Below, piece after piece: positions 2,636 through 22,558 of a DNA stretch of 25,567 nt. Source of the DNA: a virus (taxonomy: Duplodnaviria; Heunggongvirae; Uroviricota; Caudoviricetes); the IMG/VR virus record IMGVR_UViG_2925914267_000006, positions 1 to 25,567 of that record; one strand, 5' to 3'. Numbering within the stretch: the stretch's first letter is position 1; each line of letters begins with the position of its first letter. The notes beneath the pieces were generated by a model that saw only the letters and a list, made by a program, of their open reading frames with translations, was not told where the DNA came from and made no database searches. The translations under genes and the position numbers were made by a program.

Positions 2636-3111
2636 TATCTGCACTGCTCATTAATATACTTCTGGGTTCCTTCCAGTTGTTTTTGCATAGTGATCAGCCT
2701 CTCTCTGAGGGTGAAATAATCCCGTTCAGCGGTGTCTGCCAGTCGGGGGGAGGCTGCATTATCCACGCCGGAGGCGGTGGTGGCTTCACGCACTGACTGA
2801 CAGACTGCTTTGATGTGCAACCGACGACGACCAGCGGCAACATCATCACGCAGAGCATCATTTTCAGCTTTAGCATCAGCTAACTCCTTCGTGTATTTTG
2901 CATCGAGCGCAGCAACATCACGCTGACGCATCTGCATGTCAGTAATTGCCGCGTTCGCCAGCTTCAGTTCTCTGGCATTTTTGTCGCGCTGGGCTTTGTA
3001 GGTAATCGCGTTATCGCGGTAATGATTAACCGCCCATGAAAGGCAGACGATGACGCAGATAACCAGAGCATAAATAATCGCGGCGACTCTGCTCACTGAT
3101 CTATCCCCCAA
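2635..3111 (-). CDS. rzpD: Rz i-spanin (start uncertain, possibly GTG near 3096)
   Basis: Has an N-terminal transmembrane segment and a coiled-coil periplasmic domain, and matches RzpD as recalled. It overlaps the endolysin stop and contains Rz1 in another frame. Confidence 0.85.
2694..2876 (-). CDS. rzoD: Rz1 o-spanin lipoprotein embedded in Rz
   Basis: 60-aa ORF lying wholly inside Rz in another frame, with a lipobox (VVVGC) and a proline-rich stretch ([13 protein letters not shown]). Confidence 0.85.
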
Positions 3112-3626
3112 CAGGCTAATGCGCTTTCCTGGTCACGACGAATAACCTGTCCATAGCAGTTATTTGAACGTATGCGGCAATCGCGCCCACCATCTTTTAT
3201 CCACCAGCGAATCGCCTCGCATGCACCTTTACGATCACCGGCATTCAGCCGCTTATAAAACGTCGACGGGAAACACTTACCGGGGCCAATGTTATAGGGA
3301 CAAAATGACGCGATACCCGCTTTCTGTGGTTCGGTCAGTGGCACTTTAATATTGCGCTCCACCCATGCCAGCGCCTTATCCCGTTCAATGGCGTTAACCT
3401 GGTCGCATTTTTCCTTCGACAGTTTCATACCGGGAAAAACGGGTTTTCCATCCACCACCGTGGCACCCCGACAGATGGTCCAGATGCCGGAACCATCGCG
3501 GTATGCCGTTGTGTGGTTACCTTCTTTTTCATCCAGAAACTGGTCGAGAATATCAGGCGCAGGCGCACCGACGGCAATCAGTGCCAGAACGGCAGCCGAC
3601 AGGCCGTATCTGATTTTTGCGTTCAT
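3093..3626 (-). CDS. rrrD: SAR-endolysin (T4-type lysozyme fold with an N-terminal signal-anchor)
   Basis: The N-terminal hydrophobic SAR segment ([15 protein letters not shown]) is followed by an E-x8-D-x5-T catalytic pattern ([16 protein letters not shown]). It lies between the holin and Rz. Confidence 0.88.
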
Positions 3627-3969
3627 GGATATTTATCAGGATTTATCGGTTTCTGAACCCTGGATATGTTTATCTGTCCCGGCCTGTTGAATCAGGCAAG
3701 GAATAGTTAAATACAATAGAGAGGATTGTTTATGGACAATAGCACCATTTCTCTACAGGAGTTGCTCGACTGCATTTCCAAGCTTCGGGATGATGTAAAT
3801 GCCCTTACTGTCGCATTTTAATATCTGGCATTCTCAATTCCCAAGGAACAAATGCAACCAACACTGGCATCGCTCCAGCTTGAATCACTCAACCCCAAAT
3901 GGTCCCAGCAACAACAAAATTCTTTCAAGTGGCTGGCGGTATTACTGGAAGAAAAATATGCTGGTGAAA

Positions 3970-4314
3970 TTACCATTTCGGCGGAGTCTTCAGAGAACCA
4001 GTAATTCTTCCCGGTAGCTTTCCTTTGTAGGTTATCCACACATTCTGCGCCTCTAAAATTATGGGGCGCTTTTCCGGCGACAGCTCATCCCCTTCACATA
4101 ACCCGGCAGCAACATCCAGGAAGACCTGTCTGATGCTCCTTCTGGCTGCTGCCTCATAAAACTCCAGCGCGGCACCTTCAACACGGTCCAGCGAGATGTC
4201 CAGGTCAAAAATTTCACCGTCAAAGCGTTTTTTGTCCCGTAACGCTAAAGTTACCGTAACTTTATTCTCAAAATTGCGGATCCCTTTCACAATCAGTTCA
4301 TAGTTTTGAGTCAT
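3970..4314 (-). CDS. Hypothetical 114-aa protein inserted between pinholin and endolysin, possibly DUF1327/YdfR-like
   Basis: The start lies 4 nt after the holin stop, with a GGGGAGAG ribosome-binding site. A comparable holin - ydfR - lysozyme order exists in the Qin prophage by recall; the family assignment is unverified. Confidence 0.5.
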   Translation of the reverse strand: MTQNYELIVKGIRNFENKVTVTLALRDKKRFDGEIFDLDISLDRVEGAALEFYEAAARRSIRQVFLDVAAGLCEGDELSPEKRPIILEAQNVWITYKGKLPGRITGSLKTPPKW

Positions 4315-4318
4315 TGAA

Positions 4319-4534
4319 TTACTCTCCCCGTGCAGCCTTACGCTTGTCTTCTTTAATCTTGAAATAAAGGTTTGTCAGGTACGTCAGCAGGCCAAATACC
4401 AGGCTACCCAGCACACCTATTGCTGCCCACTGTGAGGGCGTGACTTTATCGAGCAGCTGTAAAAACCAGTAACCGGCACTACCTGCTGAGGTGCCATAGG
4501 CGACACCCGTTGTTAACTTATCCATGGATTTCAT
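4319..4534 (-). CDS. essD: Class II pinholin (phage 21 S21-like) with a dual-start motif
   Basis: 71-aa protein [26 protein letters not shown]... with two transmembrane segments and a charged C-terminus; it matches S21/EssD as recalled. Confidence 0.9.
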
Positions 4535-4644
4535 AACCCCACCTCGCAGACAAAGCGGGTGTAAATTGAGGGAATACTACGAAACGTAACAGACTCGGAG
4601 TCAGTGAATAACTCAGGTATTGGGTTATCAGCTAATATCGAGAC

Positions 4645-4680
4645 TCAAAAAATGGAAAAACCCGCTCGACGGCGGGTTTA
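4645..4680 (-). terminator. Rho-independent terminator on the minus strand upstream of the holin (tR'-like)
   Basis: On the minus strand the stem aaacccgc / gcgggttt (6-nt loop) is followed by ttccatttttt, about 110 nt upstream of the essD start. This is the expected position of the late-operon terminator. Confidence 0.5.
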
Positions 4681-5107
4681 AGCTGTGTGACGAAGTAACC
4701 ACTCTTAACAGCATAACCAATTTTTTACGTACGTAAACCACAAAATGATATTTGCGAGAATGCTACCGAGTATTGAAAACACCACTACAAATACATAAGC
4801 AAATCTCAACAAATAACCAACAAATAATTTCCAGTGTTATTTTTAGCCGATTTAAATTGAACCTTCAAATTACAGAGCACTTATAAATAACAGCCGTTAA
4901 TATAAATTGGCTAATAGATTTATTTTTATTCAGCCAAGAGCCATGAATAGGATTCGATAGAAAAAAGTTCAGATAAAAATAGAGATCTACTTCACAAATC
5001 AAACGAGAAACCAAAACTTACATCTTGAAATAATCACATTGATTAGATGAATATTTATCGCGCAGTGACATCATTTTTTAATAATAGTTCAAAAAAAAGG
5101 GCTCACG

Positions 5108-6190
5108 ATGAAAAAATTAACAGTGGCAATTTCTGCTGTAGCTGCATCAGTACTGATGGCGATGTCTGCTCAGGCAGCTGAAATTTATAATAAAGACAGT
5201 AACAAGCTGGATCTGTACGGGAAAGTTAATGCTAAGCACTACTTCTCCTCTAATGATGCAGATGATGGTGATACTACTTATGCCCGTCTTGGCTTCAAAG
5301 GTGAAACCCAAATCAACGATCAACTGACTGGTTTCGGTCAGTGGGAATATGAATTCAAAGGCAACCGCGCTGAATCTCAAGGTTCCTCCAAAGATAAAAC
5401 CCGTCTTGCCTTCGCTGGCCTGAAATTCGGTGACTACGGCTCCATCGATTATGGCCGTAACTACGGTGTAGCATACGATATTGGTGCATGGACCGACGTT
5501 CTGCCAGAATTCGGTGGCGATACCTGGACCCAAACAGATGTATTCATGACTGGTCGCACCACAGGTGTTGCAACTTATCGTAACAACGACTTCTTTGGTC
5601 TGGTTGATGGCCTGAACTTTGCAGCTCAGTATCAGGGCAAAAATGACCGAAATGAAGTAACTGAAGCTAATGGCGATGGTTTCGGTTTCTCAACTACTTA
5701 TGAGTATGAAGGATTCGGCGTGGGTGCAACCTATGCTAAATCTGATCGCACTAATAATCAGGTTATCTACGGTAACAACGGTCTGAATGCTTCTGGTCAA
5801 AATGCTGAAGTATGGGCAGCTGGTCTGAAATATGATGCGAACAACATCTATCTGGCCACCACCTATTCTGAAACCCAGAACATGACTGTTTTTGGTAATA
5901 ACCATATTGCCAACAAAGCACAAAACTTCGAAGCTGTTGCACAATATCAGTTCGACTTCGGCCTGCGTCCATCCGTTGCTTACCTGCATTCTAAAGGAAA
6001 AGACTTGGGTGTTTGGGGTGATCAGGACCTGGTTGAATATGTTGATGTAGGTGCAACCTATTACTTCAACAAAAATATGTCCACTTTTGTTGACTACAAA
6101 ATCAACCTGATTGATAAGAGCGATTTCACGAAAGCATCTGGCGTTGCTACCGATGATATCGTTGCTGTAGGTATGGTTTACCAGTTCTAA
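5108..6190 (+). CDS. nmpC: Intact general porin of the OmpC/NmpC/OmpD family (prophage-borne Lc-type porin)
   Basis: 360-aa protein with a signal peptide (ending AQA) and the porin C-terminal ...VGMVYQF; it matches NmpC as recalled and is full length here. Its upstream region looks AT-rich by eye. Confidence 0.9.
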
Positions 6191-6327
6191 TTTGATTACT
6201 AAAAGATATGTTGTGGGAGGCTTTGCCTCCCCAACATATAAGTGGCTCCCTCAAGCCACTTCCTTTAGAAGCACAACCTTGCTTCTAACTATACAAACCT
6301 TCTGTTATATATTACCCTTTATTTTTG

Positions 6328-6352
6328 GGGGCGCTTCAACGCCCCATTTTTA
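6328..6352 (+). terminator. Rho-independent terminator downstream of the porin gene
   Basis: GC stem ggggcg / cgcccc with loop cttcaa, followed by atttttaat; it is the last of four tandem hairpins. Confidence 0.6.
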
Positions 6353-6386
6353 ATAACTTTTAGTAAATAATTGGCGTATTAATTAG

Positions 6387-7581
<1,195 letters not shown>

Positions 7582-7604
7582 TTAGTTGATTGTTATCTCT
7601 GACT

Positions 7605-7745
7605 TCATACTCCTGCTCCTGTCAGGGTTTTGGCGTAACTCTTCAGTATTCGGTAATCGGTCAAAACAGAACCGGGGAAACGATATAAGCGCAGGCGCAC
7701 CCAGCGGCGGCGAAGACGTTCTGCCATATAAGACTCAAACATCAT
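7605..7745 (-). CDS. ylcG: YlcG small protein (46 aa)
   Basis: Translated by hand from the minus strand as [46 protein letters not shown]. It follows the rusA stop directly and is absent from the ORF track because it is under 60 aa. Confidence 0.7.
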
Positions 7746-8104
7746 TCATCTCCCAGTTCAGTGATGGTCAGTTCCAGCTTCCCACCTTTGGTAACAGGCA
7801 TCTTCACAACGCGGTAATCAACGACCAGCTCATCATCCAGCCAGAAACCTGCTTTAGTGAGTGCGTCAAAAGCGGCTTTTTGCAGATTATCCAGGTCACG
7901 GCGACGGCGATCCGGCATGTGGCACTCAATGCGGATTTTCACAGGCATAGCCAGACCGATATCCAGCATTGAGCCTTTAATGATTCGGGCGACGTTATCG
8001 CGGTATGCCTGCCCTTCTGCGCTGATGTGCGTGCGCCCTCGATTATGGCGGTAGTAGCGGTTATTGCTCGGCGGCCAGGGTAGTGTGATGTGGTAAGTAT
8101 TCAC
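7742..8104 (-). CDS. rusA: RusA Holliday-junction resolvase
   Basis: 120-aa protein [26 protein letters not shown]... matching RusA as recalled. Confidence 0.93.
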
Positions 8105-8554: not shown

Positions 8555-9013
8555 TACGCCTCCTGCTTGTCGCGCAGCAGCTGAAACTCGCAGCTCTGTG
8601 GAATAGTCAGGTGGCAACCAATATTCATCGCCCAGGCTTCAACCTTACACAGGAAGACATACATCTCTCCGGTATCAAGATCGGAGGTATGGCGTAACGA
8701 CTGGATAGTGGTGATATCACCGGTTACGACATCAACCAGGTCTTTGGTTTCATAACCGAGATATGTGTGTTTGAGAGCATCTTTTACCCAAGCTGGAGTG
8801 GCGAACGTTTTACCCTTGCTGATGAGGTATTCACTGATTTCGCTGTACCACATGTGGCTGAGTGCATTCTGGGAAAGACTGCGTCTCTCGCGCCACGGTT
8901 TAAGCACCATGCGAAAGCATTTGCCGTCCTCCAGATAAGGCTGGATCTGCCGACCAATAGCGGTGAAGTTTGAGGTGTACTGGCAATAGCGGACACTACC
9001 ATTTGTTCTTTTT

Positions 9014-9832
9014 TTAAGCAGCCATCTGATGATATTTTTCCCTGAAGGCTGCCGGGGAGATATTCCCCAGACGAGAGTGACGACGCTGACGATTGTAGAA
9101 AATCTCAATGTATTCCCGTATTACTGAGATGGCTTCATCCCGGTTATTAAAACGATAGTGGCTCAGGCTCTCATTTTTCAGCGTTCCCCAGAAGCTTTCC
9201 ATCGGAGCGTTGTCGTAACAGTTACCTTTACGCGACATTGATGTTTTCAGACCAAACTGCTCCTGTATGACCCGGTAATCGTATGCGCAGTACTGTGAAC
9301 CTCGATCAGAGTGGTGGATTAGCCCGGCAGGTGGGCGCTGGCTCCTGAGCGCCATAAACAGGGCTTTACCTGTCAGCTCTTTTGTCATGCGCTCTCCCAT
9401 GGCGTAGCCGACAATTTCGCACGTATAAACATCTTTGATGCCAGCGAGGTACAACCATCCCTCCTGTGTGGCAACATACGTCAGGTCCGCCACCCAGACC
9501 TGATTTGGTGCTGTAGGAGCGAACGTCTGGTTCAGCAGATTTGGCGCAACTGGCAGATTGTGGTTCGAGTTCGTAGTCGCTCTGAACTTGCGTTTCTGCT
9601 TACAGCGTAGCCTTAGCTCCTTACGAAGACGTGCCAGTCGGTCACGACCAACGATGATGCCATTCTCTGCCAGCTCCGTCTGGAGCCGCCGGGTTCCATA
9701 TGTTTCGCGAGTGCGGATATGTGCCACCTTAATCTCCAGTTTTAGCCGCTCATCACTTTGTTTTCTGTCTGAGGGTTCATGCTGTACCCAGTTGTAATAA
9801 CCGCTCCTGGATACACCAAATACCTGACACAT
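9014..9832 (-). CDS. IS3-family transposase OrfB (DDE integrase core)
   Basis: 272-aa ORF with typical IS3-family OrfB motifs (WVADLTYV, HHSDRGSQY, YDNAPMESFWGTLK). Confidence 0.88.
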   Translation of the reverse strand: MCQVFGVSRSGYYNWVQHEPSDRKQSDERLKLEIKVAHIRTRETYGTRRLQTELAENGIIVGRDRLARLRKELRLRCKQKRKFRATTNSNHNLPVAPNLLNQTFAPTAPNQVWVADLTYVATQEGWLYLAGIKDVYTCEIVGYAMGERMTKELTGKALFMALRSQRPPAGLIHHSDRGSQYCAYDYRVIQEQFGLKTSMSRKGNCYDNAPMESFWGTLKNESLSHYRFNNRDEAISVIREYIEIFYNRQRRHSRLGNISPAAFREKYHQMAA

Positions 9833-9867
9833 CGCTTCAATGGGAAATTGTTGTCGCCATTGTTCGA

Positions 9868-10170
9868 TTAACGCGTATTTTTCAGCGACTCCTGTGCAAA
9901 ATACGCTGTTGCTTTTTTTAATATATCTCGCTCAAGGCGAGCTTCATTTAACGCCTTACGCAGTTGCAGAATTTCAGATTCCAGTTCAGCCACCGTGCGG
10001 GAACCAGGAGTACCGAGCCCTTTTCTGGCGGCGGTAACCCATTGCCCTAAAGTGCCTTCAGGAAGAGATAATCGGGAAGCGCCTTCACTGATCGAAAGTT
10101 GATTTTCAAGAACCGTTCTGACAGCTTCGGCTTTGAACTCTTTAGAGTAACGTTGGGTTTTTCTGCTCAT
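9868..10170 (-). CDS. IS3-family transposase OrfA (HTH plus leucine zipper)
   Basis: 100-aa ORF with an HTH and the C-terminal LERDILKKATAYFAQE zipper typical of IS3-family OrfA; an A AAA AAG slippery site lies near its 3' end. Confidence 0.85.
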   Translation of the reverse strand: MSRKTQRYSKEFKAEAVRTVLENQLSISEGASRLSLPEGTLGQWVTAARKGLGTPGSRTVAELESEILQLRKALNEARLERDILKKATAYFAQESLKNTR

Positions 10171-10309
10171 TATTAGCTCCTTCTGATGCCATTCTATTTC
10201 AGGAAGGAGTGTCCGTTAAACTCAGGCTACCTCAGTTACCGCGATGCAGTTTGATGCCATCTTGTGGGAAGTTCACGCTTCACCTCCGCAGAGATCAAAC
10301 GCTGGATGC

Positions 10310-11375: not shown

Positions 11376-11530
11376 AGTTTCACCTCATCAGGTTAACCAT
11401 CACCACCAACGACGCCAATCGACTGGTGGTGAACTGTGCAAGGTTGGCGTAACCGGCTACTCAAATCCGGCGCTCCCGAAGAAGCCCTCACACAGCCCAC
11501 CATAATTTGGGCGTAGCCGTGCTTAGCGCA

Positions 11531-11552
11531 TAAAAAAACCGCTTAACGCGGT
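11531..11552 (-). terminator. Weak minus-strand terminator candidate upstream of the Bro-N-like gene
   Basis: On the minus strand ccgc-gttaa-gcgg is followed by a run of seven T; the stem is short. Confidence 0.3.
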
Positions 11553-11638
11553 ATGCGTTGAGTAGTATTCCGGGACGCCAATCCCGTGTGCCGATTTTGC
11601 GGCAACGCACAGAATATATCCCCAGATAAATCATGTCG

Positions 11639-20572: not shown

Positions 20573-20685
20573 CACCGGACATTATCCTGCAGCGTACCGG
20601 GATCGACGTGAGAGCTGTCGAACAGGGGGATTGAACCGCCCCGGAAATCCTGGAGACTAAACTCCCTGAGAAAGAGGTAAACAGG

Positions 20686-21012
20686 ATGACTAAAAATACT
20701 CGTTTTTCCCCCGAAGTCCGTCAGCGGGCGATTCGTATGGTTCTGGAAAGTCAGGATGAATATGACTCACAGTGGGCGGCAATTTGTTCCATTGCCCCAA
20801 AGATTGGCTGTACGCCGGAGACTCTGCGTGTCTGGGTTCGCCAGCATGAGCGGGATACCGGGGGCGGTGATGGTGGGCTCACCAGTGCTGAACGTCAGCG
20901 TCTGAAAGAGCTGGAACGTGAAAATCGTGAACTGCGCCGCAGTAACGATATCCTTCGCCAGGCTTCCGCTTATTTTGCGAAGGCGGAGTTCGACCGCCTC
21001 TGGAAAAAATGA
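20686..21012 (+). CDS. IS629 OrfA
   Basis: 108-aa protein [42 protein letters not shown]... matching IS629-group OrfA as recalled. Confidence 0.88.
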
Positions 21013-21899
21013 TGCCACTGCTGGATAAGCTGCGTGAGCAGTACGGGGTCGGACCGGTATGCAGCGAACTGCATATTGCCCCGTCAACGTATTACCATTG
21101 TCAGCAACAGCGACATCATCCGGATAAACGCAGTGCCCGTGCGCAGCACGACGACTGGCTGAAGAGAGAGATACAGCGCGTATACGATGAAAATCATCAG
21201 GTGTACGGTGTGCGTAAAGTCTGGCGTCAGTTGTTACGGGAAGGAATCAGGGTAGCCAGATGTACAGTGGCGCGCCTCATGGCGGTTATGGGACTTGCCG
21301 GTGTTCTCCGGGGTAAAAAGGTCCGCACTACCGTCAGCCGGAAAGCCGTTGCCGCAGGCGACCGCGTAAACCGTCAGTTTGTGGCAGAACGACCTGACCA
21401 GCTGTGGGTGGCTGATTTTACTTACGTCAGCACATGGCAGGGCTTCGTCTATGTGGCGTTTATCATTGATGTGTTTGCCGGATACATCGTGGGGTGGCGG
21501 GTCTCATCGTCTATGGAAACGACATTCGTGCTGGATGCGCTGGAGCAGGCGTTGTGGGCCCGTCGTCCGTCTGGCACCATCCATCACAGCGATAAAGGCT
21601 CTCAGTATGTGTCACTGGCCTATACGGAGCGACTAAAAGAAGCCGGATTACTGGCATCAACAGGGAGTACAGGCGACTCGTATGACAACGCGATGGCTGA
21701 GAGCATCAATGGTCTTTACAAAGCGGAGGTAATACACCGTAAGAGCTGGAAAAACCGTGCAGAAGTGGAACTGGCCACACTAACGTGGGTGGACTGGTAT
21801 AACAATCGACGATTGCTGGGAAGGCTGGGCCATACTCCTCCGGCAGAAGCAGAAAAAGCTTATTATGCTTCCATCGGAAACGATGATCTGGCAGCCTGA
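21009..21899 (+). CDS. IS629 OrfB (DDE transposase core)
   Basis: 296-aa protein with IS3-family OrfB motifs ([31 protein letters not shown]). Confidence 0.88.
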
Positions 21900-22558
21900 G
21901 TTCACAGATAAAACACTCTCCAGGAAACCCGGGGCGGTTCAGATGATGCATGGCACAAATTACGGCTCGGCGTCATCACCGCTTCAGAAGTTCACAACGT
22001 GATAGCAAAGCCCCGCTCAGGAAAGAAGTGGCCTGACATGAAAATGTCCTACTTCCACACCCTGCTGGCTGAGGTTTGCACCGGTGTGGCTCCGGAAGTT
22101 AATGCTAAGGCGCTGGCCTGGGGAAAACAGTACGAGAACGACGCCAGAACCCTGTTTGAATTCACTTCCGGCGTGAATGTTACTGAATCCCCGATCATCT
22201 ATCGCGACGAAAGTATGCGCACCGCCTGCTCTCCCGATGGTTTATGCAGTGACGGCAACGGCCTTGAACTGAAATGCCCGTTTACCTCCCGGGATTTCAT
22301 GAAATTCCGGCTCGGTGGTTTTGAGGCAATAAAATCGGCTTACATGGCCCAGGTGCAGTACAGCATGTGGGTGACGCGAAAAGATGCCTGGTACTTTGCC
22401 AACTATGACCCGCGCATGAAGCGTGAAGGCCTGCATTATGTCGTGATTGAGCGGAATGAAAAGTACATGGCGAGTTTTGACGAGATGGTGCCGGAGTTCA
22501 TCGAAAAAATGGACGAGGCACTGGCTGAAATTGGTTTTGTATTTGGGGAGCAATGGCG

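Follow-up and report, generated by a model that had tools for sequence, protein, structure and literature searches.

An intact and probably functional NmpC/Lc-type porin gene in a DLP12-type lambdoid prophage that has lost quuD to an IS5-like element

In the cryptic prophage DLP12 of E. coli K-12 the porin gene nmpC is broken, and a porin gene of full length in a prophage of the same type raises the question of whether it is a working piece of phage cargo or an open reading frame that has so far escaped damage. The stretch of viral DNA analysed here (25,567 nucleotides, IMG/VR record IMGVR_UViG_2925914267_000006, below called the window) is a DLP12-type lambdoid prophage, and the features that bear on the question are collected in Table 1. 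We think it very likely that the gene is an intact, probably functional moron, which is a self-contained cargo gene, of the NmpC/Lc type in a DLP12-family lambdoid prophage at argU/intD. Its expression in the present host, its pore properties and the phenotypes that it may confer would be those suggested by its relatives.

Table 1. Positions of the features of the porin locus in the window, and what each assignment rests on.
Feature	Position	Strand	Basis
essD (holin, 71 aa), which opens the lysis cassette	4319..4534	-	ORF; position as annotated essD in relatives
Intrinsic terminator on the late-gene strand, 8-bp stem then TTCCATTTTT	4658..4679	-	terminator scan
Distal CRP-binding site CTGTGTGACGAAGTAACCACT	4683..4703		21/21 = annotated site 1067-1087 of J02580.1
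Proximal CRP-binding site ATAGAGATCTACTTCACAAAT	4979..4999		21/21 = annotated site 1363-1383 of J02580.1
Candidate sigma-70 promoter, TTGAAA, 18-19 nt spacer, GAATAT/AATATT	5025..5055	+	best match of the relaxed scan
Porin CDS, NmpC/Lc/'OmpD'-type general porin	5108..6190	+	ORF, Pfam/NCBIfam profiles, solved porins, phage copies
Porin signal peptide, 23 aa	5108..5176	+	= annotated lc sig_peptide (69 nt) in J02580.1
Three consecutive stable hairpins	6206-6239, 6240-6261, 6265-6288		fold of 6188-6365: -64.9 kcal/mol, z=-9.8 vs shuffles
Intrinsic terminator of the porin transcript, GGGGCGCTTCAACGCCCC then ATTTTTAATA	6328..6355 (stem 6328-6345)	+	terminator scan
IS5-like (ISKpn26-type) element, 1195 bp, transposase ORF 6521-7513 (330 aa)	6387..7581	-	in place of quuD
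ylcG, 46 aa, intact, the IS's nearest gene neighbour now	7605..7745	-	stop-free translation; annotated ylcG position
rusA, 120 aa, nin-region gene	7742..8104	-	NCBIfam RusA E=5.3e-83, full length

The reading frame starts with ATG, runs uninterrupted for 360 codons and ends in VGMVYQF, as the initial annotation had stated. The Pfam profile Porin_1 (PF00267) matches it from end to end (E=3.6e-152, residues 29-360 against profile positions 1-337 of 337), with a score of 507 bits at a cut-off of 23.7. The solved structures of OmpK37, OmpC, OmpK36, PhoE and OmpF align with residues 24-360 (E of about 1e-120 to 1e-135), OmpK37 being the best match, and the chromosomal porins OmpC, OmpF and PhoE together with OmpK37 belong to the same family, presumably with the same fold and mechanism. 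Unlike the chromosomal general porins, the porin of the window is phage-borne and controlled through CRP sites. Cleavage of the precursor is predicted just before AEIYNKD, and it is at residue 24 that the mature chains of the solved porins begin to align. The protein has a Sec signal peptide followed by the AE(I/V)YNKD start of the mature chain, and its last residue is the Phe of the C-terminal beta-signal. A trimeric 16-stranded beta-barrel with channel conductance would be expected from the gap-poor full-length alignment to solved porins of about 65% identity.

The protein was aligned with Lc (protein 2) of the lambdoid phage PA-2 (J02580.1), with K-12 NmpC rebuilt by joining the two MG1655 fragments, and with K-12 OmpC. 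It is colinear with all three, and neither a frameshift nor an internal stop was found against any of them, so that the claim of an intact gene held up on careful alignment. The full-length identity is 330/360, or 91.7%, to Lc and to the rebuilt NmpC alike (90.4% to J02580.1 by tblastn), and the signal peptide is the same as in Lc. Lc and NmpC are 365 residues long, and the window porin is five residues shorter through two in-frame indels, one of 3 amino acids at RNEV---TEA, where Lc/NmpC have RSDFDNYTEG, and one of 2 in an 11-letter stretch opposite AGKVLPEVFASGK of Lc/NmpC. Most substitutions are gathered in the C-terminal half, in four short stretches that include both indels, and only about three are found in residues 1-180. 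The four stretches are variable in OmpC too, and from the topology of OmpC we take them to be the surface loops L4, L5, L6 and L8. With differences clustered in this way, the receptor or antigenic specificity of the window porin may differ from that of PA-2 Lc.

The 30 of 360 aligned positions that differ from Lc/NmpC, and the two indels, could point to a cryptic pseudogene of full length, disabled by missense changes or loop indels, with a product that neither folds nor conducts. We regard this as very improbable, as the changes lie mostly in the four C-terminal-half stretches where OmpC varies as well. Furthermore, in the alignment with K-12 OmpC the residues matching the pore-lining K16, R37, R74, R124, D105 and E109 of OmpC (numbering of the OmpC structure) are all kept, in the contexts LYGKV, YAR, KTR, TGR, WTD and LPEFGGD, as are the L3 motif PEFGG and the C-terminal signal. 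Exactly the same protein is also found on at least 1000 contigs and, with 100% amino acid identity, in the isolated and viable phages ev099 and ev243, which implies that the window porin carries no private damaging change.

A different origin is suggested by the NCBIfam 'porin OmpC' subfamily model, which the protein matches with 515 bits at a curated cut-off of 484, and by the RefSeq records that name the gene ompC: it could be a displaced chromosomal ompC paralogue and not phage cargo. Against this, the identity to K-12 OmpC is 64.7%, as compared to the value above for PA-2 Lc, and the gene has the holin on one side and the nin genes on the other, in a prophage whose relatives end in intD beside tRNA-Arg. 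The same gene is found at the same position in 42 phage records, among them PA-2, P7 and a 434 derivative. The prophage context of the gene refutes the chromosomal explanation, to which we assign next to no probability. The names given by depositors to the exact protein are 'porin OmpD', 'outer membrane porin protein LC' and 'porin OmpC', and the last of these labels, which comes from automated pipelines, hides the phage-borne NmpC/Lc identity.

By its sequence, the window allele is the 360-aa variant labelled OmpD, OmpC or LC, distinct from the K-12 NmpC allele. The cluster formed around it at 90% identity has n=2741. With the porin gene as megablast query, 2500 of 5426 complete E. coli genomes have a match of at least 80% coverage, and among all records matching the gene the best match is at least 99% identical in 227 and 95-99% identical in 830; in strain X14-3 the gene is 100% identical at the nucleotide level. 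The nmpC/ompD gene is widely described as present in E. coli and silenced by insertion in K-12 (PMC3333887). The window porin is the classical NmpC/Lc prophage porin in unbroken form; it is already known, annotated and common, and in this respect the finding has little significance beyond the correct annotation of the porin.

The gene order in the best E. coli relatives is nohD, ylcI, ybcV and bor, then rzpD, rrrD and essD, the porin, and quuD, ylcG, rusA, ybcO, ninE and ybcN, after which come replication, immunity and recombination genes and, at the end, intD beside tRNA-Arg. In the window the porin gene occupies the + strand and the late and nin genes, among them those for the holin and the lysozyme as well as rusA and ninE, the - strand, which agrees with the initial description of a gene running against the late operon. 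It lies between the holin and the place of the antiterminator gene Q, now occupied by the IS element. PA-2 lc has the same orientation and the same place between the lysis genes and Q. The Q-porin-holin layout with Q intact is found in ETEC1720, STEC17-190, ev099 and mEp332, and it is shared by ev243, Perceval and the PhiR-series phages, where the porin is again on the opposite strand (the Perceval protein is 94.2% identical); like ev099, these phages are viable and keep their Q. The window prophage differs from ev099, ev243, Perceval and the PhiR phages in having lost Q and in carrying several IS elements.

The interval between Q and the holin is not always filled by this porin. Ten other phages and prophages with the same holin carry alternative cargo there (L010-L019, at about 3900-5780 of these loci), and their homology to the window is lost 10-15 bp ahead of the holin start. 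The types of cargo seen in the interval are the 360-aa porin, the 365-aa allele, a DNA (N6/N4) methyltransferase, a SASA-type esterase, IS66, and a cluster of lipocalin, desulfurase and AraC genes. This pattern has the signature of an exchangeable cargo slot, and the interval would be a moron site. The Pfam family Phage_holin_2_1, found in related loci, is further evidence for the holin essD. The lysis module itself (3096-4331) is unlike that of DLP12, with a DUF1327 ORF of 114 aa (3970-4314) between the holin and a 177-aa lysozyme (3093-3626). DLP12 has rrrD directly after essD, and the arrangement with DUF1327 is common in other lambdoid prophages.

K-12 NmpC (b0553) is encoded at the same argU/intD locus, in DLP12, and shares the neighbours essD, ylcG and rusA with the porin of the window. 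In MG1655 the gene is annotated as a pseudogene, in fragments of 1040 nt and 58 nt parted by IS5B, so the disruption of the K-12 copy by IS5, as first described, is correct. The split comes after codon 346 and cuts off the last segment with the C-terminal beta-signal, and the 434 derivative has an IS5-split copy, annotated NmpC, in which IS5 follows the same codon. The insertion target in K-12 is CTAA within TTC ACT AAA, duplicated on both sides of IS5. The window has TTC ACG AAA there (6121-6132), and owing to the ACG codon the target tetranucleotide is absent from this place; seven CTAA sites are found elsewhere in the porin gene. Whereas IS5 sits inside nmpC in K-12, the element of the window lies downstream of the porin gene in the opposite orientation, and it is quuD that has been removed instead.

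The gap between the porin stop codon and this element is exactly 196 bp, the distance that had been given as approximate. The element has terminal inverted repeats of 16 bp (GGAAGGTGCGAATAAG and GGAAGGTGCGAACAAG), is 91% identical to IS5 of K-12 and 99% identical to a RefSeq copy of the 'ISKpn26 family', and its transposase matches the NCBIfam IS5 family transposase (E=6.9e-110). Compared to the IS-free locus of ETEC1720, where window position 6386 corresponds to position 4787 and 7582 to position 5226, the element replaces 438 bp (4788-5225), namely quuD (4780-5163) without its last 8 nt and 62 bp upstream of it. The remnant of 8 nt from the 3' end of quuD is kept at 6379-6386, and no Q gene was found anywhere in the window. 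TTAG is present on both flanks of the element (in the regions 6379-6386 and 7582-7604), and this is the reverse complement of the CTAA target at the nmpC IS5 insertion in K-12 (PMC11677980). Such flanks could have come about if two copies had inserted and then recombined with each other, or through an adjacent deletion mediated by the IS. Independent IS5 insertions have occurred nearby, inside quuD in STK39-3-E and as two copies in C600, and this interval is evidently a frequent target of IS5. The arrangement of the window was not found in one piece among the complete E. coli genomes, and the exact right-hand junction between the IS and ylcG was found neither in the genome-contig scan nor in 19 fetched loci.

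The replacement of quuD was not part of the initial annotation, which had placed the porin between a late terminator and the nin genes. The first half of this description stands, because a late-strand terminator separates the holin gene from the control region of the porin; it is conserved in K-12, PA-2 and ev099 and is presumably the one that was meant. The second half is true of the window only through a deletion: quuD normally separates the porin from the nin genes, and its removal by the IS5-like element has made them neighbours.

The control region of the porin is well conserved. The interval between the holin and the porin is 573 bp long and nearly identical to that of K-12, PA-2, ev099 and two further strains, and both CRP sites annotated for PA-2 lc are kept without a change. 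The porin-proximal part of the upstream region (4700-5100) has a GC content of 27-32%, so that it is indeed AT-rich, as first described. A strict scan for sigma-70 promoters found one on neither strand, and a relaxed scan gave the candidate hexamers TTGAAA at 5025-5030 and GAATAT/AATATT around 5050-5055. Transcription of the porin would then start near 5061-5063, and the proximal CRP site would be centred about 73 bp ahead of it, as is typical of class I activation. The candidate promoter falls within the segment that matches PnmpC (-199..-1) of K-12, from which the window differs by one extra A in an A-run of the 5' UTR; the run has 8 A's in the window, PA-2, ev099 and ETEC1720, and 7 in K-12. 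In K-12 the segment -199..-1 is an active nmpC promoter, and its deletion or blocking lowers the nmpC::IS5 transcript and the effect on IS5 transposition (PMC11677980).

Downstream of the gene there are three consecutive hairpins, also kept in K-12 and in the IS-free relatives, which could stabilise the mRNA or block transcription coming from the Q side. They are followed by an intrinsic terminator on the + strand, as claimed, which is intact, with 31 bp between its end and the IS. The IS has spared the whole porin cassette, from the control region to the terminator, and ylcG and rusA are intact as well. As far as sequence goes, the porin has a promoter region with CRP sites and a terminator of its own, as a moron should.

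No RNA family of Rfam was found in or adjoining the porin cassette, and no gene for a micF-like antisense RNA, of the kind located beside ompC in K-12, was seen adjoining the porin. In another part of the window Rfam matches above the gathering score were found to the C4 antisense RNA (11422-11507, - strand, 72 bits) and to the Hfq-binding RNA isrK (11532-11604, - strand, 61 bits). They adjoin a gene for a P22AR-type antirepressor, as in the antisense immunity module of the P1/P7 style. The prophage small RNA svsR (PMC12247714) was considered and set aside as unrelated to the porin region, since it sits in cI and targets lamB.

The lysis cassette may have a promoter very close to that of the porin. 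The published primers of a DLP12 lysis-cassette reporter are said to cover the segment from -121 to +650 (PMC7918800). One of them maps to 5161-5180 (- strand) in the window, and the other could be placed only approximately, with mismatches, near 4413-4430. Indirectly, this puts the '+1' of the reporter close to 5059 (- strand), a few bp from the porin start proposed above, so that the promoters of the porin and the lysis cassette would overlap and may be mutually exclusive. It would also put the late-strand terminator about 380 nt into the lysis-cassette transcript. In a relaxed scan for a late promoter, weak candidates came up at 4737-4710 and 6339-6309 of the - strand, and no promoter is annotated in the phage records that have this module.

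An overlap of this kind is one of the ways in which the porin gene could be intact and silent in its host, a neutral passenger on which no IS has landed yet. Silencing by H-NS on the AT-rich upstream DNA would be another, the GC content being typical of H-NS targets, and repression by a small RNA a third, as nmpC mRNA is reported to be a target of RybB (PMC3333887). With three or four IS elements in the prophage and Q lost, selection on it may also be weak. We still find it quite unlikely that the gene is silent, because the same control region is active in other strains. In the K-12 strain NCM3722, which has an uninterrupted nmpC, NmpC accounts for about 2% of the proteome, a 200-fold excess over the MG1655 background, and it goes up under carbon limitation, reciprocally with OmpC (PMC8144880). 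The nmpC::IS5 transcript is detectable even in BW25113 (PMC11677980), and in lysogens of AIEC strain LF82 the 94%-identical copy in prophage Perceval has a transcript level 10-fold above the local prophage background (PMC9928086). The perfect conservation of both CRP sites also speaks against a silent gene. The proposal that this is a gene of lysogenic conversion is thus supported by near-identical genes that are expressed in lysogens (PMC9928086, PMC8144880).

If the gene is a functional moron, it would be transcribed from its own CRP-cAMP-responsive promoter, opposite the late genes, to its own terminator. With such a promoter the lysogen would produce the porin independently of the lytic programme, and most of all when carbon is limiting. 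From what is known of the porin family, the precursor would be exported by Sec, cut after AQA at residue 23 and delivered to BAM, which would recognise the C-terminal signal ...VYQF. It would fold into the trimeric 16-stranded beta-barrel, with the pore narrowed by loop L3 and its PEFGG motif, and small hydrophilic solutes would pass through. By analogy with Lc and NmpC, its synthesis would shift the porin mix of the outer membrane, with less OmpC, and the altered mix may change the sensitivity of the cell to phages, colicins and antibiotics. Effects of Lc of phage PA-2 as a receptor and in exclusion were reportedly studied in the Schnaitman laboratory in the 1970s-80s, and a quiescent nmpC in E. 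coli B is said to have been described by Prilipov et al. in 1998.

The prophage around the gene is in decay. Apart from the IS5-like element, an IS3-family element at 8971-10233 (ORFs of 100 and 272 aa, - strand) lies in ybcN, as seen by comparison with the STEC17-190 prophage, and by the size of its ORFs it may be IS600. A second IS3-family element, at 20632-21941 (ORFs of 108 and 296 aa, + strand), is inserted in exo; it comes with an Rfam match to the ALIL frameshift pseudoknot at 20967-21083, and its ORF sizes are presumably those of IS629/IS1203. At the beginning of the window, ORFs of 91 aa (1-276) and 167 aa (195-698) occupy positions 1-713, the homology to an intact relative starting at 714. 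By size we assume these to be InsA and InsB of IS1, which probably truncates the prophage on the side of the packaging genes.

The deletion of Q and the other IS insertions imply a defective prophage in which the porin cassette is still whole. In an IS-rich host with a decaying prophage, the intactness of the porin could simply mean that it has not been hit yet. It is conceivable, but in our opinion unlikely, that there has been selective retention, and that the porin is a domesticated host gene kept whole in a disarmed prophage of an IS-ridden, possibly Shigella-like host. Only with low confidence would we see the deletion of Q by the IS5-like element, and the splitting of ybcN and exo by the IS3-family elements, as the disarming. 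If there was such retention, the loss of Q would also stop a Q-dependent transcript that runs back-to-back with the porin promoter into the lysis genes, and the surface-loop allele of 360 aa, as opposed to the one of 365 aa, would reflect diversifying selection by phages or immunity.

For the prophage, removal of the Q antiterminator by the IS means that the usual Q-dependent activation of the late genes would be lost, a point to bear in mind when its inducibility is judged. For the host, an intact NmpC/Lc copy can rank among the major proteins of the outer membrane when carbon is limiting, on the scale measured in NCM3722 (PMC8144880). This implies that the host may differ from K-12 in its porin-dependent susceptibility to phages, colicins and antibiotics.
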